From Fibrobacter succinogenes subsp. succinogenes S85 (lineage in GTDB: Bacteria; Fibrobacterota; Fibrobacteria; Fibrobacterales; Fibrobacteraceae), in the NCBI RefSeq assembly GCF_000146505.1, contig NC_017448.1, positions 3,780,001 to 3,812,000 on the forward strand: a stretch of DNA of 32,000 nucleotides. Reading direction: 5' to 3'. Each line of letters opens with the position of its first letter. Position 1 is the stretch's first letter. Positions 1,991 through 18,990 of this stretch are shown piece by piece. The notes under the pieces are model-generated. The model made no database searches. It was not told the origin of the DNA and saw only the letters and a program-made list of their open reading frames with translations. The position numbers and the translations under genes were made by a program.

Positions 1991-2264
1991 AAGGACTCCG
2001 ATTGAACAGTTGAGAGACTTGAACGGGAAATATGTTGTTAATCCGAAACCATTGGAATTGGCTGAAGGAGCAACTCGTTTAGAACATGTATATGACAATC
2101 AGAAACAAAGACTATGCCTTTATCATCCTAAGAAAAGACCATGGGATAGATCGATGCTTTTATCTGAAACGGTAATTCCATGGGCGATTGAGTGGCTTTA
2201 TTTCTATGAAATTTGGCTTTGTACTGGTCAATGGTTGGGCGGTGGAGAGCATCCCGTAAGGTAG
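1965..2264 (+). CDS. Hypothetical protein with an E2/UBC-like H-x9-C-L...W motif
   Basis: 99-aa ORF. The segment LEHVYDNQKQRLCLYHPKKRPW has the same His-to-Cys spacing as the E2 signature HPNIxxxGxICL...W. The C-terminus is Trp-rich (IPWAIEWLYFYEIWLCTGQWLGGGEHP). Confidence 0.4.
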   Translation: MDTRFMGRRRTPIEQLRDLNGKYVVNPKPLELAEGATRLEHVYDNQKQRLCLYHPKKRPWDRSMLLSETVIPWAIEWLYFYEIWLCTGQWLGGGEHPVR

Positions 2265-2305
2265 ATGTAATTGCTTTTTTTTTCACGCTTCGGAAAAAAA
2301 ATCCC

Positions 2306-2388
2306 GTTTTGTCACAAACTGTCAAAATGGATTATGTATTTTAGGGGTGTGAAAAGTGCGCTTGTCACGCTAGATGGTTTGACAAGCG
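2306..2388. promoter_or_regulatory. Operator-like TTGTCA half-sites and a 9-bp inverted repeat upstream of the first Panacea antitoxin gene
   Basis: ttttgtcacaaactgtcaaaa (2307-2327), plus a perfect inverted repeat cgcttgtca (2359-2367) and tgacaagcg (2380-2388), lying 31-60 nt upstream of ATG 2419. Confidence 0.3.
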
Positions 2389-2418
2389 TTGAATTAAACT
2401 CTATCTTTGTGGTGTAAA

Positions 2419-2982
2419 ATGAAGACTCTAGAGCAAATAAAGAAAATCGAGAATGTGATACTCTATGTATTGCAGAAGTTTGATGACGGCGTAGACTACA
2501 TCAAGCTTTTCAAGATAATCTATTTTGCCCAAAGGGATTACCTGTGCCGTTTTGGCAAGACTTTGGTCCCAGAAACTTTCAAGGCCAGGATGCATGGCCC
2601 TATCCCGACATTGACCGACAAGGTCATAAAGAATGTCGAAGATGGGGTGGGTGACGATTTCCCCGACTTGAAGGAGTTCATGGAATCCATCAAGGTTGTC
2701 GACCAGAAGGTCTATGCCTTGAAAGAGCCGAATCTGGATTTTATCGCAAAGAAGGAACGCGAGTACCTCGACAAGTGGTTTGACTACTGCAAGGACAAAA
2801 AGTCCTATGACCTGTCCGAGGAATCTCACGATGCTGTTTATCATAGCGTTGTCGCCAGGTCCAAGAAGGATCCTCAGCAGGATGTTATGACGAATATCGA
2901 TATTGCGATGTCCGGTCACGCTTCCGACAAGATGATTGAGTACATCCGCGAAAAAGAACTTCTTGTTGCCGAGTTAGCGTAA
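2419..2982 (+). CDS. Panacea/DUF4065 (SocA/PanA-like) antitoxin domain protein, pair 1
   Basis: The segment IKLFKIIYFAQRDYLCRFGKTLVPETFKARMHGPIP matches the DUF4065 core (KLqKLlYfaq...g.pl....f.aw.hGPV). I prefer ATG 2419 to TTG 2407. Its stop overlaps the next start (TAATG). Confidence 0.75.
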   Translation: MKTLEQIKKIENVILYVLQKFDDGVDYIKLFKIIYFAQRDYLCRFGKTLVPETFKARMHGPIPTLTDKVIKNVEDGVGDDFPDLKEFMESIKVVDQKVYALKEPNLDFIAKKEREYLDKWFDYCKDKKSYDLSEESHDAVYHSVVARSKKDPQQDVMTNIDIAMSGHASDKMIEYIREKELLVAELA

Positions 2983-3473
2983 TGGAAGACAAAAACGGAG
3001 TTCTTGCCAAACTTCATGACGAAGTTTGCGTGGTGAAGTATGCTGAAGACTTGCATGTCGGTGATATCATCTATGTGCAGCTTGATTCGGCGGATGGCAT
3101 TAATACCCAAGGGTATCCCACTAGGCTGAAATATGTTGTTGTTTCCGGAGCTAAGTCGGACCGGAAACAGATTGCTGCAGTTTTGATAAATTCGGAAAAC
3201 GATTATTCCAACGATCCTGAATGGCAAAATGAGCAGTACCTGCTTTCTCAGAAGAATTATGCCGATTTTTTGGAATACGACAGTTGGCTGGACTGTTTTG
3301 AAATTAAGGAACTCAAAGTCCGCAAAATTGTTGCAAGGAAAGCTGAAAAGAAAGGTTGCTTGAATAATTATGACTTGCGTGTCATGATGCAGAAATTGAA
3401 GGATTCTGAATTCATCGACGAACACCTGAAAAAGGTGTACGGGATAAATTCATTTGAGTTGCCTGAAAATTAG
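2982..3473 (+). CDS. Uncharacterised toxin candidate partnered with the Panacea antitoxin, with a MazF/PemK-like sequence pattern
   Basis: 163-aa ORF that is translationally coupled. The order GDIIYVQL...RLKYVVVSG...IAAVLINSE...YDSWLDCFEIKEL...KKGCLNNYDLRVMMQKL parallels MazF (GDIVWVDF...RPAVVLS...CVPCTT...ADQVKSI...KKGTVAPEELQLIKAKI). Confidence 0.6.
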   Translation: MEDKNGVLAKLHDEVCVVKYAEDLHVGDIIYVQLDSADGINTQGYPTRLKYVVVSGAKSDRKQIAAVLINSENDYSNDPEWQNEQYLLSQKNYADFLEYDSWLDCFEIKELKVRKIVARKAEKKGCLNNYDLRVMMQKLKDSEFIDEHLKKVYGINSFELPEN

Positions 3474-3583
3474 TGGGGCGAGGGATAGGTTTATAAACGA
3501 GGAATGCTGACTTCTGCGAAACCGAAGCCATCAACAACCAGGTGTCCTTTTACAAGACCGATACTTTCATAAGGAATAAATAT

Positions 3584-3757
3584 ATGACTTACGAATTTGA
3601 TCTTCATGAAAGCAGGGAAGAAGGAAGGAAAGAAGCTGAGGCTAAGGCGTTGGAAGAGAAAAAAGCCATGGCCAGGGGATTCCGCGATGACGGATTTCCT
3701 TTAGAAGCTATTTCTAAACGAACCGGATTTACAGTCGAAGAAATTAAAGCGTTGTAG
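3584..3757 (+). CDS. Small charged/HTH-like protein resembling the C-terminal tail of Rpn/YhgA-like putative transposases, possibly a gene remnant
   Basis: 57 aa from ATG 3584. The EEGRKEAEAKALEEKKAMARGF...ISKRTGFTVEEIKAL pattern resembles that tail. A strong terminator follows. Confidence 0.4.
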   Translation: MTYEFDLHESREEGRKEAEAKALEEKKAMARGFRDDGFPLEAISKRTGFTVEEIKAL

Positions 3758-3785
3758 CTTTTTTCTGCTTCAAAATCTTTTCTAC

Positions 3786-3818
3786 AGAGCATCGCAAATT
3801 GCGCTGCTCTTTTTTTTG
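3786..3818 (+). terminator. Rho-independent terminator
   Basis: Stem agagca/tgctct with an inner gcaa/ttgc stem (3786-3810), followed by a T8 run. Confidence 0.7.
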
Positions 3819-3831
3819 TTGATGCGGAGTA

Positions 3832-3860
3832 TTGACAAACGGAAAAAACTTGTGTATATT
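3832..3860 (+). promoter_or_regulatory. Sigma70-like promoter candidate for the second Panacea pair
   Basis: TTGACA (3832-3837), a 17-nt spacer, then TATATT (3855-3860). The direct repeat tgtgtatat occurs twice just downstream. The promoter consensus for this phylum is an assumption. Confidence 0.3.
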
Positions 3861-3971
3861 TTATAGTGTACAAATGTGTATATCTGAAGCTTGTGAAAAG
3901 AATGAAACCTTGTTTTGGGGAGATGTTGACTGAATGTATTCTTTTTCATATTTTTATAGAGAAGGTGTTTA

Positions 3972-4514
3972 ATGTCTGCTTTTAAACCGCTATTTGGCAA
4001 AGAGGTCTTGCTTAACGCAGCTTTGTGGGTTGCTACGAAGTTGCCCGAAGACCAATGTCGCTTGCATAAGATTTTTAAAATCTTGTGGTTTGCTGACTTA
4101 TACCACCTGAAAAAATATGGTAGGACTGTTACAGGTGATACCTATATCGCTATGAATAATGGTCCTGTTCCATCTGTTTTATACGATGAAATGAAGTTTA
4201 CGCCTTCGGAAGGAGATGCGTTTCGGAGGTTTGACAAGGGCTCTGAAAAAGGGTTTGTTGTTCCTTTGAAAACTGTTAATTCTGATTTCTTGTCGGAATC
4301 AGATATAGAGGCTTTGTCGTATTCTTTTGATTTGTATAAAGATAAATCATTTGATGAATTAACTCGATTGTCCCATCAGCATGCATGGAATTCTGCACAA
4401 AAATCTGGTATGAATACATCCATCAGGATAGATGAAATTCTGGATGAAATTGGTGCTGATTGCGAATTACGCAAATATGTAAAAGATGATATTCTTTTTA
4501 GGCAGGCTCTTTAA
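3972..4514 (+). CDS. Panacea/DUF4065 (SocA/PanA-like) antitoxin domain protein, pair 2
   Basis: LHKIFKILWFADLYHLKKYGRTVTGDTYIAMNNGPVPSVLYDEM matches the DUF4065 core. The next ORF starts 2 nt downstream. Confidence 0.75.
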   Translation: MSAFKPLFGKEVLLNAALWVATKLPEDQCRLHKIFKILWFADLYHLKKYGRTVTGDTYIAMNNGPVPSVLYDEMKFTPSEGDAFRRFDKGSEKGFVVPLKTVNSDFLSESDIEALSYSFDLYKDKSFDELTRLSHQHAWNSAQKSGMNTSIRIDEILDEIGADCELRKYVKDDILFRQAL

Positions 4515-4516
4515 TT

Positions 4517-4924
4517 ATGGACTTGCCAAAAAAGTTAATAGGGGAATTGTATTCTGAACGCGGTTCTGTCGTGCATTCAGAGATGAATTCTGTGATAAAG
4601 ACGGATCACGGAAAGTATTTGTTGGTAGTTAAGAAAACGGAATCTCTAATTGTATGTTGCTCTATCAATACGAATAGGGTGTATTTCAAACCAGAAGAAT
4701 CTCAGCCTAAAATTCTGAAACGGGAAAATGATTTTCTTGATCATGATTCTTATGTGGATTGTGCTCAGGTTTTTTCGATTGAAATGCAAAAGTTTTATGA
4801 TAATATCAAAACAGGTGTTTTTGTGCCGATAGGTTTTTTGAATAATCTTGCTATGGCAGCTGTTCTTCGTGCCGGGCAGACCTGTAGAGTTTTGAAAAAA
4901 TTCGAGCAGGAATATTTTAAGTAA
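4517..4924 (+). CDS. Uncharacterised toxin candidate, distant paralog of 2982-3473
   Basis: 135-aa ORF. It shares the layout KYLLVVKK...IVCCSINTN...DFLDHDSYVDCAQVFSIE with the first candidate (DS[YW][VL]DC motif). Confidence 0.55.
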   Translation: MDLPKKLIGELYSERGSVVHSEMNSVIKTDHGKYLLVVKKTESLIVCCSINTNRVYFKPEESQPKILKRENDFLDHDSYVDCAQVFSIEMQKFYDNIKTGVFVPIGFLNNLAMAAVLRAGQTCRVLKKFEQEYFK

Positions 4925-4953
4925 AACAATAAATTTAAAATAGGAGAATATAA

Positions 4954-5384
4954 TATGCTGACTACTATATCGCATATTTCGATGTTCTTGGCTGTAAATC
5001 GTTCTTCTCTGGCAATGAACAGGCTGAACTTGAATTCGTACAAAATTTGAAGAAAAAGATAGAGCGTTCTGTGAAGTCTGCGATTTCAATTAATAGTTCG
5101 TTCGTACTGAGTCAACTTGCTGATATGCGAGTGGAATATAAATTGTTTTCAGACAATGTTGCTTTATGGATGTATTGAGAGATAATATAAGCAAGTATTG
5201 TAATTACGACGACATTGATAATAAAAACTCTGATGATGTGGCGGCAAAGGCAAAAGTTATTCGTAAGTACAAATGGCTTGTTGTTTATCATAATCAGTTG
5301 TGCTATATGCATAAAAAAGAAGATTGTATTTTGACCATCAATTATACATTTGATTCTGTAACTTTGAATGAATGCATGAATTAA
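4954..5384 (+). pseudogene. Decayed gene in three consecutive frames, with a palm/class III cyclase-like N-terminal pattern
   Basis: An AGGAG RBS sits before ATG 4955 (31-aa ORF). The open frame 4954-5178 reads YADYYIAYFDVLGCKSFF...(45 aa)...KLFSDNVALW. A third frame covers 5142-5384 (track ORF 5166-5384). Confidence 0.3.
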
Positions 5385-5509
5385 AAGTCTATATGTTATA
5401 GCCTTATTGCTCTTTTAAATAACTTCTGTGGAAGATTGCTTTAATCTTGTTTGGAAGCCGTTGCAAGTAGATTGGTGTGAAATCGCTCCCATGCAAATTA
5501 GATTTGAAT

Positions 5510-7699
5510 ATGAACTACGATTTCTCTGTTTTAAGCGATAATGATTTTCAAGAAATGGTCGATAAACTCTTGATTGGTAAAACAAGAGTCGTTGAACAGT
5601 ATGCCGAAGGCCGTGATAATGGGATTGATGGACTTGTCTATGACCTCCCTAAGGAAACCATCGTTCAAGCGAAACATTATCTTAGGTCTGGTTTTAGCAG
5701 GTTAAAGAGTGTAATAAAAAAAGAGGAATTGCCAAAAATTCAAAACGAGAATATTTCGTGCTATGTTTTAGCGACATCTTTAAATTTATCTCGGAATCAG
5801 GCTGAAACATTAAGAGCTTTGATAAAGAATGTCGTTCAAGACGTAGTTGTTTTGGGTGCGGTTTCAATAAGTGGTCTACTTGACAAAGATCCTGCGACTT
5901 TGAAATCTACCATAAAGTTGTGGGCGACGAACGCCGAAATAGTTAGGATGCTCTTTAAACCCGCTAACATGAACTGTTTTTATGAACTGCAGAACCGATG
6001 GGAAGACTTAAATAATGTGTTTGTTGAAACTCCTGATGTGAAGAATGTGGTGGATTCGCTAGAAAAGAACCATGTAGCTGTAATTGCTGGCGAACCTGGC
6101 GTGGGAAAGACTACTTTGGCTGAATATATTTGTCTTCTTTATTTCAAAGAAGGGTATGAGGTTCATTTCTTTGAGGGTAAGTTTTCGCACGACGATTATG
6201 ATTTAAGTGATACGGAAAAGAAGATTATCTTCTATTTTGATGATTTTTTAGGTAGCACCTATTACAACTGTTTCTCTGGGAAACAGGACTGTTCTATTGT
6301 TAATTTCCTAAAACGGATGTCAAAAGAAAAGAACAAACGATTTATTCTTACTTCTAGGACGAATATCATTCAAAAAGCATGTGCCTATAGCCAAAGATAT
6401 CGAGATTATCGTCTTACGAAACGGGCGTATATAGTTAATGTGGGGGAATACTCTTATTTAACAAAAGCTAGAATTTTGTACAATCATTTGCAAAATTCAA
6501 ATGTGGGGGCTGGTGAAATTGCGAACATTGTGAAAAACAAAGCTTATAAGACGATTGTTGAACATAGAAATTTTAATCCCCGACTAATCCATTTTATTAC
6601 AAAACAGGAGAATTTTGAAGATTCGCAACAAGAACATTATTTAGAGTTCATCATTGAATCATTGGATAATCCTAAAGAAATTTGGGAAAATTGCTTTACA
6701 GGGCAATTAGACTCTTCTCAACGCCTTTTAGTTCAATTAGTTGTTGCTAATCGAGAAAAAATTCAAGAGAGTACGCTCAAGAATGCATATAGTAAAGCGC
6801 TTGTTGTAATGGGTATAAAAATTCCTGAACTGGAACGTAATGATTTTGAATATGTTTTGAGTGGGTGTCTTCGATCTATCTTAAGAAGGGATGTTGAAAT
6901 ATCGGGTGGATGCAAGAAAGCTATTGTTTCTGTGTTTAACCCATCTGTTACCGATTATGTATTGCCCACCATTTTAGAAAGAGATATAATAGTTAAATTG
7001 TGTAGTGTTCTTGGAACGGTTGATTCCATAACAATTATAGAATCAAATGAAGAAAAAATTGATGATGTTCAATCGATCTATAGGGATATTGTAAAAGAGA
7101 TCCCTAAAAAAACGTGGTCAGATGCGAAAATTCGTTTAATTCGCCTTATGGGAAATAAGTGTGGGCTTGTTCCTAATCTGATAAAATATGCTATAAAAAA
7201 TAACGACATAATTACTGATGATAATAAATTTGATTTTTATTTTATCGTTATAGAAAATTTATCCAAATATGACTTTTCTGAATTTATCATATGCTGTGGT
7301 TGGTCTTTTTGTAACGATTATTCGGATTTTGGTGCTATTTTAGAGGGTTATAGAAAAACATCTTTTGCTCAACATTTTGTTATTGAATATCTGCAAGAAT
7401 GTGTGTATGAATCATTGCTTGATGATATTGAAAATATTTTGGGAAATGAAACTGATGCTTTTATATGTACATCATGTGAAGAAGTTGCGGAAGAAATGAA
7501 AATTTTTTTGGAGGAAATCAAAGATACGTATCCATTTTTGAAAGAAGATGAAATTGACTCTATTCGCGAAAATGTTGATTTAAAAAGTATTGTTGATCGA
7601 AATTTTAAATTTTTTGAATCTGCAAAAAATAGTAGTTGCGAGAAAAAAGAGCAAGAAGATATAAAGAATGTTGATGCTTTATTTAGTGGTTTGTTGTAG
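5510..7699 (+). CDS. Mrr-like PD-(D/E)xK nuclease fused to a STAND-type P-loop NTPase with a helical C-terminal region (defence candidate)
   Basis: The N-terminus LSDNDFQEMVDKLL...GRDNGIDG...IVQAKHY has a restriction-endonuclease-like core. Walker A is GEPGVGKTT and Walker B is IIFYFDDFLG. RFILTSR is a STAND/NACHT-like motif. I prefer ATG 5510 to GTG 5477. Confidence 0.8.
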   Translation: MNYDFSVLSDNDFQEMVDKLLIGKTRVVEQYAEGRDNGIDGLVYDLPKETIVQAKHYLRSGFSRLKSVIKKEELPKIQNENISCYVLATSLNLSRNQAETLRALIKNVVQDVVVLGAVSISGLLDKDPATLKSTIKLWATNAEIVRMLFKPANMNCFYELQNRWEDLNNVFVETPDVKNVVDSLEKNHVAVIAGEPGVGKTTLAEYICLLYFKEGYEVHFFEGKFSHDDYDLSDTEKKIIFYFDDFLGSTYYNCFSGKQDCSIVNFLKRMSKEKNKRFILTSRTNIIQKACAYSQRYRDYRLTKRAYIVNVGEYSYLTKARILYNHLQNSNVGAGEIANIVKNKAYKTIVEHRNFNPRLIHFITKQENFEDSQQEHYLEFIIESLDNPKEIWENCFTGQLDSSQRLLVQLVVANREKIQESTLKNAYSKALVVMGIKIPELERNDFEYVLSGCLRSILRRDVEISGGCKKAIVSVFNPSVTDYVLPTILERDIIVKLCSVLGTVDSITIIESNEEKIDDVQSIYRDIVKEIPKKTWSDAKIRLIRLMGNKCGLVPNLIKYAIKNNDIITDDNKFDFYFIVIENLSKYDFSEFIICCGWSFCNDYSDFGAILEGYRKTSFAQHFVIEYLQECVYESLLDDIENILGNETDAFICTSCEEVAEEMKIFLEEIKDTYPFLKEDEIDSIRENVDLKSIVDRNFKFFESAKNSSCEKKEQEDIKNVDALFSGLL

Positions 7700-7882
7700 T
7701 TTTTTTTGTAGACCGTTTTGCATTAATTTAATTTTGAACAAATTGCGAACATCTGATTGAACGAACTCACTTCCAAAAACTTTTGAGCTTCGCTCCAAAT
7801 CCGCTGCGGCTCGTAAATGCCCGAAAATCGGTCACTTCTCTCGCCTTGCTGGATTTATTATATTTGAAAAGTACGAGGAATT

Positions 7883-7920
7883 AAAAAACGCGCAGGCTAA
7901 TCAATAGCCTGCGCATTTTC
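7883..7920 (-). terminator. Terminator of the GH116-like gene (symmetrical, possibly bidirectional)
   Basis: Stem gcgcaggct (7890-7898) and agcctgcgc (7906-7914) with a 7-nt loop. A T-run follows on the minus strand (aaaaaa at 7884-7889 on plus), and attttc follows on the plus strand. Confidence 0.7.
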
Positions 7921-7940
7921 TTGTGCGTTGAATTTTCCGA

Positions 7941-10900
7941 TTACTTATAAAGCAGAGCGAACACCATGCCCGGGCGGAAGTACTTACCAGCGGTGTACTT
8001 GAGTGCCGTGCTGTGGAGGAGCGTGAAGAGCTCGTTCACATCAACCTTGTTGCTCTTGGCAATGGCGCCGAATGCCTTCGTGAAGGTGGCGAGATTGCGC
8101 GGGAGCTTCGGGCTGATGCGGGAGTCGGCGAGGAGTGCGCCCTTCTTCAGGAGTTCCTTGTGCATCTTGTCGGCGGCAGTTGCGCTGAGGCCGAACTTTG
8201 CAACGAGTGCTTCCGGGTGGAGGCGGCAAGAACCGTTGAATCCTTCCGGTGCAGCGAACGGAACGCGGGCTTCGTCATAGAGGTTTCCGATCATGGAATC
8301 GGCGAGCACGGAGGCTTCCTTTTCCAAACCGTGGAACATCATGGCGGTCATGATGCTGTACTGAATGCCGATCCAAACGTCGTGAGCCTGGAAGTTGAAT
8401 TCGTCGAGCGGAGAACCGTCCTTACGAACAAGGTTTGCAGCACCGATGAGCGGGCTGTTGGCCTTATAGTTCGTATTGAAAATTCTGAGCAAGTTAGACT
8501 TTGCCTTAGCGCTGTCGGTAATCGGTTCGAGGTCGAGCAAGCGGAGGTAAGTGTCTGCAAGCATCGTGTCGGCGAACACGTCGTCGCAGTCGTTGGCTAT
8601 CTTTGCTTCCCAGCTCTTGGTGAAGGCTTCCTTGCACTGAGCCGTAATCCAAGCCTTCTTGAGACCGCGGAGTTCGTTCTTGGAGAGGTCTTCGCCGTCC
8701 GGGATTTCGCCTGCGCAGAGCCATTCGTTGATTGCCTTCACGCCAGCGTTCGGATCTTCCGGGAGTTCCAGAGAAACCTTCACGGCTTCGCGGAGTTCGG
8801 CGTACTTTTCGACGTTCAAGTCCTTCATTTCCATCGGGGTCACGAAGAAGCGGAAGTAGCCTTCGTTTTCGTCCCAGAGGGATTCGGTGAATTCCTTGTT
8901 GGCGGCTTCGGACTTTTCGTTCCACTTGGCAGCTTGTTCGTTGTCGCCGAGGAGCTCTGCAATCTTTGCGGCAGCGCGGAGGCCTGCAATCCAGAGGGAA
9001 CCGCAGTAAACGGAGATGCCGTAGCTGCAGAGGTTGTCGAACGTATCGTCCGTACCGTGCGTGAGCGGGAAGTTTTCGCCCGGGTTCACCATCTTTTCTA
9101 GGTATTCCATAGCGGCGTAAACGGCTTCCTTGCAATCGGCGAGGCACTGCATGTCCTTCGTCTTGTGGTAGTGACGGTAGACCATGAGCACGTATTTCGG
9201 AGCGAGGTCCTTCCATTCCTTAACGTTGTGCCAGTCGTAGGCATCCGGTTCGGCGTCGAAGGGGCTACCGAGGTCGTGAATCACAGCGCCACGCACAGCG
9301 CGCGGGCCTTCGAGCTTCGGATCCGGGAGGTCGGCGTAGGGGAGGTTCACAAATTCGTGGTGACGGCGACGGTTGTTGTTCACGGCGAGGATTGCATCAC
9401 CAAAGCGCTTCATCACAACGCCATCGAGGCGCGGCATGAGGGCGAGCAAGCTAAAGCTGCCGTAGAAGTAAACGTCGAGAGAGTTGAAGAACGGATAGTC
9501 GGCGCATTCGCGGACTAGGAAACGGTCTTCCTTGTCCCACACGGTGGCTTCGGCGAGGAAGCTGAGCGTGTTGATGGCGAGGCTCTTGAATTCAGCCTGC
9601 TTGGCGGCAGTCTTGTAGAGCTTGGCAACCGGCTTCTTCGGAACAAGGTTTTCAAATGCCTTGAGGCGATCATCAAAAGTCTTGTCGGCAGCGAGAGCTT
9701 CCGTAAGGAGGGCGACTACGCGGCCGTATGCTTCCGGGTAGAATGCGGTGTACTTCTTGGCGGAAGTGAGCTTGTTCAGCTTGATTTCCGGGAAGTCGAG
9801 CACCATGTTGAACTGGAAGGAGACCTTCTGCTTCGGCTTGAGGACTGCGGTAACGGCGATGGCACCGGCAATCGTTTCACGTCCGCTGTAAACGTTCTTG
9901 ACCCAGGAGCCTGCAACGCGACCGCTCTGGAGAGCTGCCTTCAAGACGGACTTGGCGTCGTCCTGGTAGAACATCGGCTTCACGGAAACGTTGAGGTTGT
10001 CCTTCTTGTTCCAAGCTACGCTCACACCCATGCAACCGTTGAAGTCGCTTTCGGCGAGAGCCTTTTCGTTATAAAATTCGATACCGCGAACAGAGCGGCC
10101 ATCTTCGAGTTCCTTGTCGAACTGCACGCCCTTCGGGAAACGTGCTGCCGGAACGAGAACAAAGCTGGAGTCCTGAACGCCCTGGCGGTCCTTCTTGGCC
10201 ATGTAGCCCGTGATGCTGTCCTGAATCTGGACGATCGTCACTTCGCGGGTTTCCTTGGTGTTGTTTTCGAGCGTGAAGACGGTGGCGTTCACCGGGAGGC
10301 TGGAGAGGCGTTCGTCGCCCGGAGTCACGTAGCTGGACTGCGTCTTGGTGATGGCGACACCCTTGCCTTCATAGACAGTTTCGCTAACCGGATAGAGGGC
10401 GGTGTACTTCATCTTGGCGGCGTCATAACCCGGCTGGCCGAGGAATTCGCTGTCGTTTGTCCAAGCGGCGGTGAGAGCGCCTTCGCGTGCAGCCTTTTCG
10501 CCAACCATGCCGTCGAAGAAGTCAATGAGCACGGCGCGGTTGATGGCGGCGGTGTCCTTGCCTGCGGCGATCAAAGCCTGAGTGCGGTCGCTGAACTGGA
10601 TGTGCCAGCGTTCAAAAGCGGCCTTGTTCGTTTCGAAGAAAGTCTTGTCGGCGAGAACCTTGTTGAGCTTGGCTTCGGCCTTCTTCTGGTCCTTCATGTC
10701 GGCGTCGCCGAAAACGCGTGCGCCATTAGCATCGAGGAGCGGGAAGTTGTTGTTGTAAATGCCGAATGCGGCGAAGTTGCCAATCACAAGCGCAGCCTTT
10801 GCGCTGAGCACAGCTTCCTTGAAGAAGAAGTTGTTGAAGCGGAGGTCAGAAGCCTTTTCGGTGCGAACCTGGACGCCCGGCATCACGTTCATCACGGGAG

Positions 10901-11084
10901 TCGTGCCTGCTGGCGTTGCTGTAAACGTAGAACCGATACCGCCCACGGCAATACCCGTGGTGGAAGGAGTTGTAGAAAGCGGGGTGTACCACGGCTGAAT
11001 GAATTCCACAGCGAGACCCGGGGTCATCAGCTTTTGGACGGAGCCGGACATTTTTGCACCGGCAAGATATTCTTTAATGCTCAT
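7941..11084 (-). CDS. GH116-like (GBA2-type, DUF608) beta-glucosidase/glucosylceramidase family protein, cytoplasmic
   Basis: 1047-aa ORF. The motifs GIAVGGIGS, YPFFNSLDVYFYGSFSLLALMPRLD, HDLGSPFD...WKDLAPKYVLMVYRHY and VYCGSLWIAGLRAAA match GBA2/GH116 signatures from memory. No signal peptide is present. Confidence 0.8.
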   Translation of the reverse strand: MSIKEYLAGAKMSGSVQKLMTPGLAVEFIQPWYTPLSTTPSTTGIAVGGIGSTFTATPAGTTPVMNVMPGVQVRTEKASDLRFNNFFFKEAVLSAKAALVIGNFAAFGIYNNNFPLLDANGARVFGDADMKDQKKAEAKLNKVLADKTFFETNKAAFERWHIQFSDRTQALIAAGKDTAAINRAVLIDFFDGMVGEKAAREGALTAAWTNDSEFLGQPGYDAAKMKYTALYPVSETVYEGKGVAITKTQSSYVTPGDERLSSLPVNATVFTLENNTKETREVTIVQIQDSITGYMAKKDRQGVQDSSFVLVPAARFPKGVQFDKELEDGRSVRGIEFYNEKALAESDFNGCMGVSVAWNKKDNLNVSVKPMFYQDDAKSVLKAALQSGRVAGSWVKNVYSGRETIAGAIAVTAVLKPKQKVSFQFNMVLDFPEIKLNKLTSAKKYTAFYPEAYGRVVALLTEALAADKTFDDRLKAFENLVPKKPVAKLYKTAAKQAEFKSLAINTLSFLAEATVWDKEDRFLVRECADYPFFNSLDVYFYGSFSLLALMPRLDGVVMKRFGDAILAVNNNRRRHHEFVNLPYADLPDPKLEGPRAVRGAVIHDLGSPFDAEPDAYDWHNVKEWKDLAPKYVLMVYRHYHKTKDMQCLADCKEAVYAAMEYLEKMVNPGENFPLTHGTDDTFDNLCSYGISVYCGSLWIAGLRAAAKIAELLGDNEQAAKWNEKSEAANKEFTESLWDENEGYFRFFVTPMEMKDLNVEKYAELREAVKVSLELPEDPNAGVKAINEWLCAGEIPDGEDLSKNELRGLKKAWITAQCKEAFTKSWEAKIANDCDDVFADTMLADTYLRLLDLEPITDSAKAKSNLLRIFNTNYKANSPLIGAANLVRKDGSPLDEFNFQAHDVWIGIQYSIMTAMMFHGLEKEASVLADSMIGNLYDEARVPFAAPEGFNGSCRLHPEALVAKFGLSATAADKMHKELLKKGALLADSRISPKLPRNLATFTKAFGAIAKSNKVDVNELFTLLHSTALKYTAGKYFRPGMVFALLYK

Positions 11085-15497: not shown

Positions 15498-15512
15498 GGG
15501 GGTGCTCTGGTT
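15498..15512 (+). repeat. Exact 15-nt duplicate of the tmRNA 5' end
   Basis: gggggtgctctggtt occurs at 15498-15512 and again at 15651-15665, in the same orientation. Confidence 0.9.
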
Positions 15513-15650
15513 GGCCAAAATTCCTGCTACTCGCAGCAATTTTGCCCTCCGGGTCTTTCGAACGCATGCGTTCTCAAGAGCTTAAATGCTCGCTAGCTCG
15601 CATTTAATCGACAGGCCTGTCTCAACCGAGCATCCTTGTGTAGAACACAA

Positions 15651-16008
15651 GGGGGTGCTCTGGTTTCGACAGGGTTACCGAAGTGTTAGTTGCAAGTCGA
15701 GGTCTCAGACGAGGGCAACTCGTTAAAAAGTCTGAAAAAAAATAAGTGCTGACGAAAACTACGCACTCGCTGCCTAATTAACGGCAACGCCGGGCCTCAT
15801 TCCGCTCCCATCGGGATGTACGTCCGGACGCAATATGGGATAGGGAAGTGTCATGCCTGGGGGCATCTCCCGAGATTTACTAGGCTGGTCAAACTCCGCG
15901 CCGACCTTCTTGGGCGTGGATAAGACGAGATCTTAAATACGAAGGGAACACTTGTAGGAACGTACATGGACGTGATTTTGGACAGGGGTTCGACTCCCCT
16001 CACCTCCA
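15651..16008 (+). ncRNA. ssrA: tmRNA (SsrA), tag ADENYALAA
   Basis: The 5' end is GGGGGUGCUCUGGUUUCGACAGGG. The 3' T-arm GGGGUUCGACUCCCC is followed by CACCUCC-A, which pairs with the 5' end and includes a G3:U wobble. CCA is not encoded. The tag ORF gct gac gaa aac tac gca ctc gct gcc taa lies at 15748-15777. Confidence 0.9.
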
Positions 16009-16045: not shown

Positions 16046-16099
16046 TTTGTAAGAACCGCTCGGCTCTTTCTTTCTAAATTGAAATCAAAAGGAGGTTGT

Positions 16100-16513
16100 A
16101 TGGATTGCAGAATCTTAGTCCGTTTCATTGGAGTCCAAGAGGATCTTGATGCGTTGTGGAGCGCATTCATGGAACATTTCCCGGAGGCCGAACTGCCGAG
16201 CGTCGATTCCGGAGAATGGTATTCCGTCGAAGATTACATGACCGATGAATACGAATGCCGCTTCGAGGTACTGCCGGAGTCCGAGCTATATGCAATCGAT
16301 GGAACTTTCCTTGTCGAAAACGAACCGCCCGAGGATGTCCTGACCGAAATTCTGGAACGCTTCGAACGCGTGTATGCCGTGTTCAAGTGGTCTACGATGG
16401 ATGTTGGGGTAGGCTGCGGTACCAGCGAAGGCTGGGGCGAGTTCAATGCCGACCGCGCCGATGACGGTTCCGACGAAGCGAACGAAATCTCCGAAGCTGT
16501 CCTCGGATTTTAG
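16100..16513 (+). CDS. Acidic hypothetical protein
   Basis: 137 aa from ATG 16100, preceded by an AAAGGAGG RBS. No family is recognised. It is convergent with the radical SAM gene. Confidence 0.6.
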   Translation: MDCRILVRFIGVQEDLDALWSAFMEHFPEAELPSVDSGEWYSVEDYMTDEYECRFEVLPESELYAIDGTFLVENEPPEDVLTEILERFERVYAVFKWSTMDVGVGCGTSEGWGEFNADRADDGSDEANEISEAVLGF

Positions 16514-16548
16514 CCATTTATTTTACGCCATTTATTTTACGCCATTTT
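16514..16548. repeat. 14-nt tandem duplication (2.5 copies) spanning the radical SAM gene stop
   Basis: ccatttattttacg occurs at 16514-16527 and 16528-16541, followed by a partial copy ccatttt. Confidence 0.85.
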
Positions 16549-17625
16549 CTCAAGCAGTGTATCGCAGATTTCTGCGAGCATTCTTTCGTGCGTACACACT
16601 TCGGGTGACACTCCTTCTATTGTCCCCGTCGTGTAGTAGCTCGTGCAGGCGCACTCGTGCGCACAGCAGCGGTAGCGGATGTCGCACCCCTCGCATTCCT
16701 TTTTGTCGTTGTCTAAAAATACTCGAATCTTGTCACAAGCCGCTTCGTCAAAGCCGGTAAAAACGTTCCCCTGCACATAGTGGGTGTTTGGGTTTGAGGT
16801 GATAAACCGTGTGCAAGGGAACATATTCCCGTTTGTCGCAACACCGATGGCTCCATTGTACACATGGCACGAATAAAGTCTGTATCGCGAATTAATAAGT
16901 CTTATTTTTACTTTGTCGTGGATTGTGCCGAGGAAGAACTTGTCGCCTTTCTCGCGGCATTCTCTCCAGTAATCTGCCATTTTCTGGTATTGCAAGGCGA
17001 GCTTGTCAAAATCTTCACCGCTCCACTTACCGTCAAAATCAACACTTGTGGTAAGGCTCTGGAATCCCTGTTCGTGCAGCCACTTGACGCTCTCAAAAAG
17101 CGTGCTGACGTGGGCTCGCGTGACGGTGCTTAACGCGACTGCGCCGAGTTTCACGAATCGCGGAATATGCTTTTCGATGGCCTTGAAACTTCCCGTATTG
17201 TTGACGGTGCGGCGCGCGATATCGTGGTGGTGTTCCGGCCCGTCGAGTGAAAGATAAATGCGGAATTTTTCGCGTTCGCAAAAGTCAAAGAATTCGTCGT
17301 CAAACAGCGTGGCGTTTGTGTTGACCGCAAATTGCAACTTGAAATTTTTTGAGATTTTGCCTTTGTCCATCGCGTCATCGACAATCGCCTTTGCGAATTC
17401 AACACCTTTATAAATGGCGTCCCTTCGCAAAAGCGGCTCCCCTCCAAAGAACGTGATGTTCAAGTACGACTGCCTAAAGAAAATCGTGCGGTCGAGTGCA
17501 ATTTTGATGGCCTGCTCGAGGGTTGCATCGTCCATGACCGTTTTGCGGTCTGCTTGCGATTCCTTGTAATAGCAGTAGGTACAACGTAAATTACATTGTT
17601 CTGTAAGGCAAAGGACTAAATTCAT
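16537..17625 (-). CDS. Radical SAM enzyme with a C-terminal SPASM domain (peptide/protein maturase type)
   Basis: CNLRCTYC (CxxxCxxC) lies near the N-terminus, with a GGEPLL motif. The C-terminus has CX12GX4C (CHVYNGAIGVATNGNMFPC) and the cluster CEGCDIRYRCCAHECAC. I prefer the start MNLVLCL (ATG 17625), which overlaps the upstream stop as ATGA. Confidence 0.9.
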   Translation of the reverse strand: MNLVLCLTEQCNLRCTYCYYKESQADRKTVMDDATLEQAIKIALDRTIFFRQSYLNITFFGGEPLLRRDAIYKGVEFAKAIVDDAMDKGKISKNFKLQFAVNTNATLFDDEFFDFCEREKFRIYLSLDGPEHHHDIARRTVNNTGSFKAIEKHIPRFVKLGAVALSTVTRAHVSTLFESVKWLHEQGFQSLTTSVDFDGKWSGEDFDKLALQYQKMADYWRECREKGDKFFLGTIHDKVKIRLINSRYRLYSCHVYNGAIGVATNGNMFPCTRFITSNPNTHYVQGNVFTGFDEAACDKIRVFLDNDKKECEGCDIRYRCCAHECACTSYYTTGTIEGVSPEVCTHERMLAEICDTLLEKMA

Positions 17626-18251
17626 GCTTGAATGTCGTCTTGCTCGAACGTGGTGACCATGCTGAATATCATACACGAGCCATCATCGCAGATGTGTATG
17701 CGAGGGTTGAGCGTATCTATGGCAGGTGTGGTTTGAGTGGCAGGGATTGCTGTTTTGCTGCTACTAGACTTTTCCTCGGACGAGCTTGACAGCGTTTCGC
17801 TTGATGAAGAATCTTCGTACGGCGGGAGAATGCCTGCTTCTGGAGGTGGCTCGTAAGACGAACTGCTAGGTTTTTCGACGGAAGAACTGCTGAGACGTTC
17901 AGAAGACATGACCATCGGGGAACCCGATTCTGGCGGCGGGTACACCATGGAGCTACTCAATGGCTGCATTGCAGAGGATAGTGCTTCGATGGCTTCGCTG
18001 CTGAGATGTTCTCCGCTTGAAGAAATGTCGGTATAGCTAGAACTGCTGTATTGTTCTCCGCATGCCGCCTGTCCGCATGTCGGTTCGTTCTCTGGCTGCT
18101 GCTTGGGATGGTCTCCGCTATTTGCCGATACACTGTCATCGCAAGCTGTTGCACCGATGGATGCCGCAATTCCGAGTGCAGCTGCGACCGCACTTTGGGT
18201 AAAATGGCTCAATTTTGAGCTTTTGACGACTTTCTTCTTCTCAATTTTCAT
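17622..18251 (-). CDS. Ser-rich putative lipoprotein with a conserved Cys/acidic C-terminal tail, paralog B
   Basis: MKIEKKKV...AAALGIAASIGATAC signal/lipobox, about 150 aa of Ser/Pro/Glu low complexity, and the tail IHICDDGSCMIFSMVTTFEQDDIQA. A GAGG RBS is present. Its stop overlaps the radical SAM start. Confidence 0.8.
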   Translation of the reverse strand: MKIEKKKVVKSSKLSHFTQSAVAAALGIAASIGATACDDSVSANSGDHPKQQPENEPTCGQAACGEQYSSSSYTDISSSGEHLSSEAIEALSSAMQPLSSSMVYPPPESGSPMVMSSERLSSSSVEKPSSSSYEPPPEAGILPPYEDSSSSETLSSSSEEKSSSSKTAIPATQTTPAIDTLNPRIHICDDGSCMIFSMVTTFEQDDIQA

Positions 18252-18275
18252 GGTTCCCTCTAACACTTGCAGATC

Positions 18276-18845
18276 TTATACATTGTCAAACATTTCGTAT
18301 GTGGACACCATGCTCACTAGCGGAAAGTCGTCATCGTCATGGCACATAATGACGTTTACGCCCATAGAATCAATTTTGTTGCAATCTCTTGGCCATGGTG
18401 GGACGACTTCTGTGGAACTGCTAGATTCTTCCTTGACGCTCGACGAACTGCGGGGCTTTTCGACAAATGTGCTGCTAGAACTTTCGGATGAGCTGCTGAC
18501 GATTTCTTCTGACGAACTGCTTTGAATTGGTGCAACAGAAGAGCTGCTTGGCGTTTGTACGGAAGAAGAAGAAAGTGCTTCGATGGCTTCACTGCTGAGT
18601 CGTTCGTGGCTCAGCGGAATATCGGTTACAGAAGAACTTGATTGTATTTCGGGGCTTTCGGAGGCGTCGCTGCTGTTTGGATTGTTGTTGTCTGGTTCAA
18701 CAGGGCCGATAACCTGACCACTTTCAGCATCGCCTGTACAGCCGCTCATCAAAATTGCGGACATGCCAAGCATTGAGGCAACACCTGCCTTGGTGGCATT
18801 CGACAAACGTGAATTTCCGGTAACTTTCTTCTTCTCGATTTTCAT
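18276..18845 (-). CDS. Ser-rich putative lipoprotein with a conserved Cys/acidic C-terminal tail, paralog A
   Basis: MKIEKKKV...SAILMSGC lipobox, a Ser-rich linker, and the tail VIMCHDDDDFPLVSMVSTYEMFDNV. An AAGGAGG RBS is present. Confidence 0.8.
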   Translation of the reverse strand: MKIEKKKVTGNSRLSNATKAGVASMLGMSAILMSGCTGDAESGQVIGPVEPDNNNPNSSDASESPEIQSSSSVTDIPLSHERLSSEAIEALSSSSVQTPSSSSVAPIQSSSSEEIVSSSSESSSSTFVEKPRSSSSVKEESSSSTEVVPPWPRDCNKIDSMGVNVIMCHDDDDFPLVSMVSTYEMFDNV

Positions 18846-18990
18846 AAAAATTTTCCTCCTTACATCCTTACACCATGTTAATATAGTTTGTTTTGGAATA
18901 TAAAGTGTAATTTGGGGCCTTTTTTGTGATTGGCTCTGAACGTTTTTGTTGCATCCGTTGCATATAGGCGTTGCGACTTCGCCGCAGTTG

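Follow-up and report, generated by a model that had tools for sequence, protein, structure and literature searches.

The window analysed here, a stretch of 32,000 nucleotides of the Fibrobacter succinogenes S85 genome, holds three consecutive minus-strand genes, Fisuc_2713, Fisuc_2712 and Fisuc_2711, which we refer to as lipoA, lipoB and rSAM and which form an operon neighboured by ilvBN, a tmRNA gene and prfC. An earlier note, drawn from the sequence alone, had described the interval 16537-18845 as two tandem lipoprotein paralogues followed by a translationally coupled radical SAM/SPASM maturase, and this observation is confirmed in all details open to checking. The coordinates, the minus-strand layout, the gaps of 24 nt (18252..18275, between lipoA and lipoB) and -4 nt and the ATGA overlap agree, as do the common MKIEKKKV start and the lipobox of the two lipoproteins, the cysteine of which we locate at position 36 in lipoA and 37 in lipoB. 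The genes and their signals are as follows:

18855..18861, minus strand: Shine-Dalgarno sequence AAGGAGG, 9 nt 5' of the lipoA ATG (read from the sequence)
18276..18845, minus strand: lipoA (Fisuc_2713), 189-aa lipoprotein precursor, first of the two tandem paralogues, start MKIEKKKV (open reading frame and translation)
17622..18251, minus strand: lipoB (Fisuc_2712, annotated as 'proteophosphoglycan ppg4'), 209-aa lipoprotein precursor, start MKIEKKKV
17622..17625, minus strand: ATGA overlap of the lipoB stop TGA and the rSAM start ATG
16537..17625, minus strand: radical SAM/SPASM enzyme (Fisuc_2711), 362 aa, without an RRE domain, start MNLVL
16490..16507, minus strand: weak terminator-like hairpin about 30 nt past the rSAM stop (consensus scan only, in which such sites are no more numerous than expected from shuffles)

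The lipoA protein is identical to ACX76296/WP_015732391, is matched by the N-terminal HMM of the lipoprotein family at 6e-20 and aligns with lipoB over residues 1–91 (E = 3e-15). For rSAM, the GTG at 17676 given by the ORF lister was rejected as start codon: the homologues all start MNL, with M1, N2 and L3 invariant, and the GenBank protein has 362 aa. Shine-Dalgarno-like sites accompany 34 of 52 lipoprotein starts of the family, compared with 4 of 30 rSAM starts. Transcription of Fisuc_2713, Fisuc_2712 and Fisuc_2711 is co-regulated; in low pH RNA-seq the lipoprotein genes respond with log2 values of -1.53 and -1.59, and the enzyme gene is down 2.4-fold (PMC5442110).

Conservation of the gene pair

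The pairing of enzyme and lipoproteins is obligate, two-way and clade-specific. All 92 matches of the N-terminal HMM in the 80 genome loci are encoded just ahead of the enzyme gene, on the same strand, and when metagenomes were searched reciprocally from the lipoprotein N-terminus, the enzyme was the next gene downstream in 27 of 27 informative loci. The lipoprotein–rSAM arrangement recurs in 56 of the 80 genome loci, with one to five tandem lipoprotein copies per enzyme. The stop of the last lipoprotein gene overlaps the rSAM start in 41 of these 56 (by -4 in 32 and by -1 in 9), congruent with the translational coupling proposed earlier. Within the window's clade, lipoproteins sit beside the enzyme in all 35 loci, and on clustering of 78 enzymes the partner type follows the enzyme clade with no exception. 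The conservation of gene neighbourhood that the earlier note had wanted checked is thereby borne out, and the possibility raised alongside it, that orthologs usually occur without such lipoproteins, is contradicted by both the clade and the metagenome loci.

The pairs also display the traits of RiPP-type systems, namely adjacent precursor genes, a constant part with a variable core, and multiple copies. No conserved protease or exporter gene was found in the loci, which fits use of the general Sec/Lsp machinery.

The radical SAM/SPASM enzyme

Two cysteine-rich regions define the enzyme:

17572..17595, minus strand: radical SAM cluster motif CNLRCTYC, residues 11–18, Cys invariant
16564..16869, minus strand: SPASM auxiliary-cluster region, C253–C354, pattern C-x12-G-x4-C ... 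C-x2-C-x5-C-x4-C-x-C ... C ... C (from the alignment with CteB and anSME)

Beyond the CxxxCxxC motif, eight further cysteines are invariant in the family (C253, C271, C311, C314, C320, C325, C327 and C344) and C354 is retained in at least 90% of its sequences, so the radical SAM and SPASM cysteine patterns that had been read from the sequence are both present. Canonical SPASM domains (PF13186/TIGR04085) follow CX9-15GX4C ... CX2CX5CX3C ... C, with seven Cys and two auxiliary clusters; the pattern here, invariant in 36 homologues, departs from this with a CX2CX5CX4CXC spacing. Of the suggested profile searches, that with Pfam Radical_SAM (PF04055) places the protein in the superfamily (60.7 bits, threshold 29.5), whereas Pfam SPASM falls short (15.1 bits, cut-off 21.5) despite the presence of the cysteine pattern. 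The extra invariant C327 means that an open CteB-type site on auxiliary cluster I cannot be deduced.

The structural model matches CteB and anSME over its full length, and CteB ranks first among PDB entries by both sequence and fold, ahead of anSME and ChlB. Among the NCBIfam families, PapB-family ranthipeptide maturases rank highest (NF047865; 212.5 bits for the window enzyme, below the cut-off of 340, and 180–224 bits for its relatives), then nif11, QhpD and SCIFF maturases, and the cut-off of every characterised curated family was missed. No RRE can be accommodated, because the enzyme begins 10 residues before the radical SAM motif. These data support rSAM being a radical SAM/SPASM protein of the peptide- or protein-maturase kind, similar to CteB, PapB and QhpD, and agree with the peptide-modifying architecture assigned to it before.

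The lipoproteins and their C-terminal tails

Each lipoprotein carries three conserved elements:

18738..18845, minus strand: lipoA extended signal peptide, with conserved n-region MKIEKKKVTGNSRLSNATK, h-region and lipobox LMSGC (Cys36)
18141..18251, minus strand: lipoB extended signal peptide, with MKIEKKKVVKSSKLSHFTQ, h-region and lipobox ATAC (Cys37)
18564..18626, minus strand: lipoA internal conserved motif TDIPLSHERLSSEAIEALSSS (alignment of diverse clade members)
17970..18032, minus strand: lipoB internal conserved motif TDISSSGEHLSSEAIEALSSA (alignment of diverse clade members)
18279..18356, minus strand: lipoA C-terminal module NVIMC168HDDDDFPLV-SMVSTYEMFDNV (statistics over 93 distinct tails)
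17625..17702, minus strand: lipoB C-terminal module RIHIC188DDGSC193MIF-SMVTTFEQDDIQA (statistics over 93 distinct tails)

With a positively charged n-region, a hydrophobic h-region of 16–17 residues and a lipobox of the type [LVI][ASTVI][GAS]C, both proteins are predicted to be lipidated bacterial lipoproteins, i.e. Sec and signal peptidase II substrates. Neither matched any curated family. The lipobox Cys is invariant in the family and has a median position of 37, compared with 21 for generic lipoproteins encoded in these loci, and the conserved n-region is about 16 residues longer than usual; in spirochaete relatives the lipobox Cys lies likewise far in, at positions 40–42. The amino acids of the initial MKIEK are invariant while their synonymous codons vary. 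This long n-region and the internal TDIP..SSEAIEALSS element are two conserved features absent from the earlier note. The Ser/Pro/Glu low-complexity region that it did describe is evident between lipobox and tail (Ser 28–33%, Pro 9–11%, Glu 10–11%), and the family lipoproteins are predicted to be disordered; the AlphaFold2 model of lipoB is disordered as well, with a mean pLDDT of 43, a confidence too low to support a tail hairpin.

The tail follows the consensus hxhC–variable loop–SMV[ST]T[FY]E..D. Over 93 distinct tails the S, M, T, E and D of SMVxTxE..D are each 94–100% conserved, the motif ends 5–6 residues past the Glu in every case, and all 93 carry at least one Cys no more than 25 residues upstream of the motif. 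Lack of conservation of the tail among orthologs, which had been considered capable of overturning the original proposal, is thus not seen. C-x-D occurs in about 69 of 91 tails. In lipoA the layout is C155-x12-C168-HDDDDFPLV-SMVSTYEMFDNV, Cys155 being located 13 residues before Cys168. Among 4913 ORFs scanned, the motif is restricted to the lipoprotein family, the other approximately 4800 being devoid of it. The loop between the tail Cys residues is allelic among strains with its flanks fixed, as in RiPPs, where the core varies and the recognition part stays constant. The Cys pair could also be a plain disulfide formed after export.

Proposed mechanism and alternatives

We propose that the operon encodes two disordered, Ser-rich lipoprotein precursors and an RRE-less maturase that modifies their tail before export, a model that we regard as evenly balanced when taken as a whole. 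Its parts differ in strength: the lipoproteins are probably the substrates of the enzyme, the case for the tail as the modification site in the window's clade is evenly poised, and a thioether as the chemistry is a possibility falling somewhat short of that. Ribosomes ending lipoB would re-initiate on the enzyme gene, which usually lacks its own Shine-Dalgarno sequence, so the enzyme would be made beside its substrate. It may then bind the precursor in the cytoplasm, possibly through the long conserved n-region (MKIEKKKV..LS...K) in the manner of a RiPP leader, and would modify the C-terminal module hxhC–variable loop–SMV[ST]T[FY]E..D–COOH. The likeliest chemistry would be a thioether from the Cys sulfur to a carbon of Asp, Glu or Thr in the same module, each link costing 2 Da and closing a small macrocycle. 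Sec passage, lipidation by Lgt and cleavage by signal peptidase II would follow, the latter removing 'leader' and signal peptide at once. This would leave a flexible stalk of about 150 residues, anchored by its lipid and tipped with a cross-linked, strain-variable C-terminal knob.

The lack of an RRE and the scores below the curated cut-offs, that of Pfam SPASM included, count against this reading, and the sister enzyme clades (about 55% identity) weigh on it as well. These clades share the same invariant cluster Cys, while their partners include proteins that lack Cys beyond the lipobox (in cluster 7, 11 of 17; of the MNIK type, all) or, in other clades, a small Lys-rich protein encoded downstream. 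Thus, chemistry differs between clades or is not Cys-based, the Cys tail cannot account for the wider family, and both chemistry and site remain inferred. The partners may accordingly be modified independently of the tail Cys, by epimerisation or by cross-linking (C-C or C-O) at an element that all of them share, with the Cys tail of the window's clade then serving as a separate exported binding or disulfide module; we consider this rather unlikely. SPASM enzymes do make C-C and C-O links besides thioethers (PMC8939145). Moreover, a candidate common element, [AS]G[DEIQV][PIVL][IVPA], is present in 53% of the mature regions of lipoproteins and, once these are shuffled, in 5% (for example EAGILPP in lipoB, ESGQVIGP in lipoA, and PLAGDPI), with like strings in the partners encoded downstream (ELAGIPAI, ETAGIPVL) and in those of spirochaetes (PPLAGKPA). 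This motif was however defined post hoc, has no known chemistry and is absent from roughly a third to a half of the lipoproteins, whereas the tail is by far the best-conserved mature part in the window's clade, with Cys in every distinct tail, and the nearest characterised relatives of the enzyme are all thioether formers.

In two genomes (L023 and L072) the tail is lost in frame and the coupled enzyme kept, as would be expected if the lipoproteins were receptors, anchors, immunity or auxiliary factors and the enzyme acted on another target. Small non-precursor 'LPL' proteins, whose genes immediately precede those of SPASM enzymes in Bacteroidetes graspetide loci and which were proposed to be PqqD-like helpers, provide a precedent (PMC8939145), and modification of the lipoproteins is so far inferred. 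Nonetheless, an exported disordered lipoprotein is unable to chaperone an oxygen-sensitive cytoplasmic enzyme, the loci hold no other conserved candidate substrate genes, and one to five diverging tandem copies, a variable core between constant flanks and strict co-variation with the enzyme clade are the signature of a precursor, making such a non-substrate role improbable. Very improbable is a target at the 'lipobox' Cys or its surroundings, for instance cross-linked to the next acidic residue, which would render these unconventional lipoproteins. It is the only Cys universal to the lipoprotein-type partners, and Asp or Glu follows within 0–3 residues in 90 of 93 members, a spacing within the Cys-Xn-Asp/Glu range of PapB; C-[GSD]-[DE] is nevertheless equally present in generic Fibrobacter lipoproteins of the same loci and hence not family-specific, modification of the thiol would block Lgt and signal peptidase II, and the Lys-rich downstream partners lack such a Cys context. 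The similarity to anSME, a cytoplasmic enzyme for Sec-exported proteins that is the second-best structural match and of the same RRE-less size, could alternatively hint at oxidation of a Cys or Ser of an exported protein to formylglycine before Sec passage. With neither a C/S-x-P/A-x-R motif nor a sulfatase domain in lipoA and lipoB, a TIGR03942 score of 90.9 against a cut-off of 349 and the additional anSME auxiliary cluster I Cys missing, we give this next to no credence.

Significance

The usual RiPP and maturase systems comprise short cytoplasmic precursors that carry a leader, plus a protease and an exporter dedicated to them. In the present case an entire lipoprotein precursor is the candidate substrate and the accessory genes are absent, so if the maturase reading is true the general export machinery must perform both leader removal and export, and the modification would be displayed on the cell, not released. 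Confirmation would assign a function to an uncharacterised gene family of which genomes throughout Fibrobacter carry several paralogous copies each, and to the TIGR04134-type pairing in spirochaetes. An RRE-less, possibly C-terminus-directed cross-linker would furthermore join a small set of enzymes useful for peptide macrocyclisation. More speculatively, and on balance doubtfully, the system may be a lipoprotein-displayed RiPP, where the n-region is the leader for an RRE-less enzyme, signal peptidase II the leader peptidase, and a strain-variable thioether macrocycle is displayed at the cell surface on the tip of a disordered stalk of 150 residues. If so, F. succinogenes, a major cellulose degrader of the rumen, could use it for strain-specific recognition (for example in adhesion, in kin discrimination or as a receptor decoy), and within Fibrobacter the enzyme family would have been directed to other partner types on several occasions.

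Comparison with known systems

A close characterised parallel is PapB/PapA, the freyrasin ranthipeptide system, likewise consisting of a radical SAM/SPASM enzyme and a target rich in Cys and Asp/Glu. PapB links Cys to Asp or Glu with 0–6 residues in between, also acts at C-termini and is active on leader-free substrates in vitro (PMC9413430, PMC12373016, PMC12715619). The C-x-D of the family tails falls inside this Cys-X0-6-Asp range. In contrast to the window enzyme, PapB has an N-terminal RRE (residues 1–85), and its substrate is a short peptide with six CX3D motifs, whereas here a 190–210-aa Sec/lipoprotein precursor offers one or two tail Cys; the dedicated protease and exporter are also missing at the window locus. 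CteB (PDB 5WGG/5WHY) is the nearest solved structure (sequence E = 2.8e-20, fold TM 0.77) and shares with the window enzyme two Cys in the first SPASM segment, where anSME has three. The alignment begins at CteB residue 99, leaving out its RRE. The SCIFF maturase family (TIGR03974) yields 122.2 bits against a cut-off of 425, and no six-Cys-in-45 peptide is encoded at the window locus, the partners being of another kind.

The family mentioned in the earlier note, 'radical SAM-associated putative lipoprotein', does exist as TIGR04134, a hypothetical equivalog to which, to our knowledge, no function is assigned. The note's doubt about its coverage was justified, as the window genes fall outside it: with a cut-off of 39.8 bits, it returned nothing at E ≤ 0.1 for lipoA and lipoB and, with eight further partners from Fibrobacter and spirochaetes, nothing at E ≤ 1. 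The sole match among the partners tested was a Treponematales protein (L075; 27.1 bits), the neighbour of an enzyme with 34% identity to that of the window. The arrangement is alike, a lipoprotein gene immediately 5' of a gene for a PapB-like, RRE-less radical SAM/SPASM enzyme, and with its lipobox Cys at 40 the Treponematales protein has a similarly extended n-region, yet in it a folded domain of about 100 aa takes the place of the Ser-rich disordered stalk and Cys tail seen in the Fibrobacter proteins.

QhpD is a radical SAM/SPASM enzyme forming Cys-to-Asp/Glu thioethers in a protein that is later exported from the cytoplasm. Its family (TIGR03906) is the third-best match, at 136.1 bits where the cut-off is 453; QhpC, unlike the partners here, is a subunit of an enzyme and not a lipoprotein, and no other qhp genes lie within the window. 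The RRE-less SPASM enzyme anSME (PDB 4K36-4K39) resembles the window enzyme in size and fold, with partners there of the sulfatase kind. Both anSME with its sulfatases and QhpD with QhpC are precedents for a cytoplasmic radical SAM enzyme that acts before Sec export. The layout emphasised in the earlier note, requiring such action on a precursor with an N-terminal export signal and a conserved C-terminal segment, stands, while its novelty is tempered by these two systems.

Organization of the locus

The system is encoded by three genes on the minus strand:

18276..18845, minus strand, lipoA (Fisuc_2713), 189 aa, identical to GenBank ACX76296
17622..18251, minus strand, lipoB (Fisuc_2712), 209 aa, identical to GenBank ACX76295
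16537..17625, minus strand, radical SAM (rSAM) gene (Fisuc_2711), 362 aa, identical to ACX76294/ADL25122, 'radical SAM domain protein'

These coordinates bear out the layout described in the earlier note: lipoA and lipoB are spaced by 24 nt, and the ATGA at 17622..17625 contains both the stop codon of lipoB and the start codon of the rSAM gene. That start is an ATG (MNLVL), and an upstream GTG present in the ORF listing was ruled out, as M1, N2 and L3 are shared by all 36 homologues compared. A strong Shine-Dalgarno sequence, AAGGAGG, is found at lipoA and none at the rSAM gene; across loci, sequences resembling it are found ahead of 34 of 52 lipoprotein starts versus 4 of 30 rSAM starts. Given this scarcity, translation of the enzyme probably relies on ribosomes that terminate at the stop codon of the lipoprotein gene. 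In the single relevant published data set that we found, an RNA-seq study, all three genes are expressed and shift jointly at low pH (PMC5442110). The GenBank name of lipoB, 'proteophosphoglycan ppg4', is a misnomer stemming from its low-complexity, Ser-rich composition.

Upstream, the operon is flanked by ilvB and ilvN, and downstream by a convergent acidic ORF, the tmRNA gene and prfC. The following features of the surroundings were recorded:

16079..16513, plus strand, acidic ORF, 144 aa, convergent with the rSAM gene, no Pfam match
15498..16008, plus strand, tmRNA gene, tag peptide ADENYALAA, between prfC and the acidic ORF
7941..11084, minus strand, GH116-family glycoside hydrolase, 1047 aa, adjoining the low-GC island
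5477..7699, nSTAND3 NTPase, in the low-GC island
2407..2982 and 3972..4514, SocA/Panacea antitoxin-domain ORFs, in the low-GC island

The low-GC island at 2000..8000 (GC 0.33–0.43 versus about 0.5 elsewhere, positive GC skew) probably serves in defence or as a toxin-antitoxin locus and was probably acquired by horizontal transfer. The acidic ORF was considered as a third component and ruled out, being convergent, without family match, and elsewhere either adjacent or about 4.5 kb off; it is probably not part of the system and linked by synteny only.

The enzyme

The assignment as a radical SAM/SPASM maturase, proposed in the earlier note, holds in its main part: the Pfam Radical_SAM match exceeds the threshold, CX3CX2C is located at residues 11–18, and 8 further Cys are invariant across homologues. 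Congruent with this, the AlphaFold2 model (pLDDT 85.8) matches, in order, CteB, anSME and ChlB, the last in a structure crystallised with the leader region of the ChlB precursor substrate. The Pfam SPASM score of 15.1 falls below the threshold of 21.5. In NCBIfam, the enzyme scores highest against the PapB-family ranthipeptide maturase model (212.5 bits versus a cut-off of 340), followed by the nif11, QhpD and SCIFF maturases and anSME, each far under its cut-off. By sequence, the nearest solved structure is CteB, with an alignment that starts only at CteB residue 99, so that a RiPP recognition element (RRE) is absent. The first SPASM segment is CteB-like, with two Cys and without the extra Cys of anSME. 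The idea that auxiliary cluster I has an open coordination site, as in CteB, was nevertheless dropped, as an extra invariant residue, C327, could be the fourth ligand. By family, the enzyme is cytoplasmic and oxygen-sensitive.

Pairing of enzyme and lipoproteins

Exploiting the enzyme as a genome-scan query, we retrieved 80 loci, nearly all from Fibrobacter and often several per genome. An HMM of the lipoprotein N-terminus matched 92 ORFs in these loci, every one of them upstream of an rSAM gene on the same strand, with 1–5 tandem copies per locus. In 32 of the 56 lipoprotein-bearing loci, the end of the last lipoprotein gene overlaps the beginning of the rSAM gene by 4 nt, and in another 9 by 1 nt. 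Reciprocally, a degenerate DNA pattern for MKIEKKK[VI] was scanned across metagenomes, yielding 120 loci, most of them chance matches, which were filtered by the family HMM. Family lipoproteins were recovered in 32 loci; the 27 that extend far enough downstream all have an rSAM gene directly behind the lipoprotein, and the remaining 5 are truncated by the contig edge. The neighbourhood pointed out in the earlier note is thus recovered from both directions. One retrieved locus represents two systems in tandem: behind the end of an rSAM gene come two lipoprotein genes and then another rSAM gene (L091:108-1920). No conserved protease or transporter was found in the retrieved loci.

Architecture of the lipoproteins

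LipoA and lipoB match no Pfam or NCBIfam model, and the AlphaFold2 model of lipoB is disordered (mean pLDDT 43) and uninformative, its sole structure being a low-confidence two-residue strand pair near the tail Cys. Alignments of 20 diverse members and 24 close orthologues revealed four conserved modules, parted by indel-prone Ser-rich spacers. The signal peptide is long, with an invariant MKIEK, and the lipobox Cys has a median position of 37 in the family versus 21 in generic lipoproteins encoded at these loci. Synonymous variation at codons 3–8 (e.g. GAA 27 versus GAG 25) places the constraint on the peptide, not the RNA. An internal motif, TDIP(L)SHE..SSEAIEALSS, is complemented by the optional short modules PTCGQAACGEQY, PPEAGILPPYE and EPEPLAGDPII. 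The last of these occurs as EPEPLAGDPII[TQ]ESSSSESTP in some lipoB orthologues (alignment A3, columns about 186–208), whereas others lack it, the copy in the window among them; EPEPLxGDP is also the C-terminal tail of lipoproteins paired with the enzyme clade at 55% identity.

The C-terminus follows the pattern [VI]x[LM]C, 8 to 18 residues, S-M-V-[TS]-T-[FY]-E-x-x-D, and 2–3 residues to the end. Among 93 distinct tails, S, M, T, E and D of the motif are conserved at 94–100%, so that the tail conservation on which the earlier note had made its proposal depend is indeed present. Every tail holds at least one Cys within the 25 residues upstream; 20 tails have one, 56 have two and 17 have three or four. 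C-x-D is found in about 69 of 91 tails. Behind the Cys, the loop appears as discrete alleles, DDGS, EDPN[ND]P[GR] and PDGTGS, among orthologues otherwise 80–96% identical. Across 4913 scanned ORFs, the tail motif is confined to this lipoprotein family.

Partner types across enzyme clades

Clustering of 78 enzymes showed that clade and partner type correspond one-to-one. In the clade of the window enzyme (35 loci), this Cys-containing tail is always present, save for two loci with in-frame tail deletions and one decayed copy. In those two (L023:4561-5004 and L072:4561-5004, versus L021:4480-5004), the Cys tail is gone (...SSSEAKPDV, then stop), with the ATGA-coupled enzyme kept. The clade at 53–57% identity is associated with a single lipoprotein of EPEPLxGDP-type ending, and small clades with partners carrying SMxTxxGH tails or with MNIK-type lipoproteins. 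In place of an upstream lipoprotein, four clades at 45–55% identity have a small protein rich in Lys, encoded 14–40 nt downstream (L041–L044, L053–L056, L058–L063, L065, L067, L068, L070 and L074). These downstream partners of the paralogous Fibrobacter rSAM/SPASM clades represent a different partner type and span 74–172 aa (MAK..KK..., e.g. L054:6139-6564). Spirochaete relatives, at 33–38% identity, possess upstream lipoprotein-like proteins that include a folded domain and have the Cys at positions 40–42; one of these proteins matches TIGR04134 under threshold.

Proposed function

Each enzyme has several precursor copies that diverge from one another, the variable core is framed by constant segments, partner and clade co-vary strictly, and translation is coupled; together, these features constitute a RiPP-like signature, which makes the lipoproteins the probable substrates of the enzyme. 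For the window's clade, the strongest candidate modification site is the tail, and a thioether from Cys to Asp, Glu or Thr would, by analogy with the nearest relatives, be the most likely chemistry. PapB joins Cys to Asp or Glu across 0–6 intervening residues, and is active at C-termini and without leader in vitro (PMC9413430, PMC12373016, PMC12715619).

With a cytoplasmic, oxygen-sensitive enzyme and an exported partner, any modification must precede Sec translocation. Precedents for modification ahead of export are anSME with the sulfatases and QhpD with QhpC. The long conserved n-region, common to the spirochaete systems too, may act as recognition element for the RRE-less enzyme, and would be removed by signal peptidase II together with the signal peptide. 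As a whole, we consider this the best explanation, with its chances evenly balanced; that the product is a RiPP displayed on a lipoprotein, with the n-region of the signal peptide serving as leader, is a more doubtful proposition.

The invariant Cys set is common to the enzymes of all these clades despite their differing partners, and a Cys after the lipobox is absent in 11 of 17 partners of the 55%-identity clade and in all MNIK-type partners. The chemistry has thus diverged between clades, or is not Cys-based, or another shared element is the true site. A rival to the thioether reading is accordingly Cys-independent modification at an element shared by partner types. One such element would be an [AS]G[DEIQV][PIVL][IVPA]-type motif, enriched in partners of several types (53% versus 5% after shuffling), yet defined post hoc. 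In the window, the short motif strings are:

17814..17843, minus strand, PEAGILPPYE of lipoB
18693..18725, minus strand, ESGQVIGPVEP of lipoA

Strings of this or PLxGD type are also seen in L046, L034, L041 and L073, including downstream and spirochaete partners. As the 'AG[ID]P'-type motif is limited to 53–68% of the lipoproteins, we do not count it as a universal modification site, and retain it within this rival explanation alone. Alternatively, the tail Cys pair could form a post-export disulfide. A formylglycine, anSME-like reading was ruled out, since the lipoproteins contain neither a CxPxR motif nor a sulfatase domain.

Comparison with known systems

The system is real, widespread in Fibrobacter and readily testable. 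No study of it was found in the literature searched (TIGR04133/TIGR04134, Fisuc locus tags, rSAM with lipoprotein precursors), and the rSAM–lipoprotein pairing concept exists only as an uncharacterised database family. That family, 'radical SAM-associated putative lipoprotein', mentioned in the earlier note, is TIGR04134; lipoA and lipoB fail its membership test and are not covered by it. A homologue search with a Treponematales TIGR04134-like protein returned that protein alone. The window enzyme likewise falls outside the PapB, SCIFF, QhpD and anSME families, failing the membership test of each. By analogy, enzyme and lipoproteins would nevertheless behave like an rSAM/SPASM maturase of the thioether type and its precursor.
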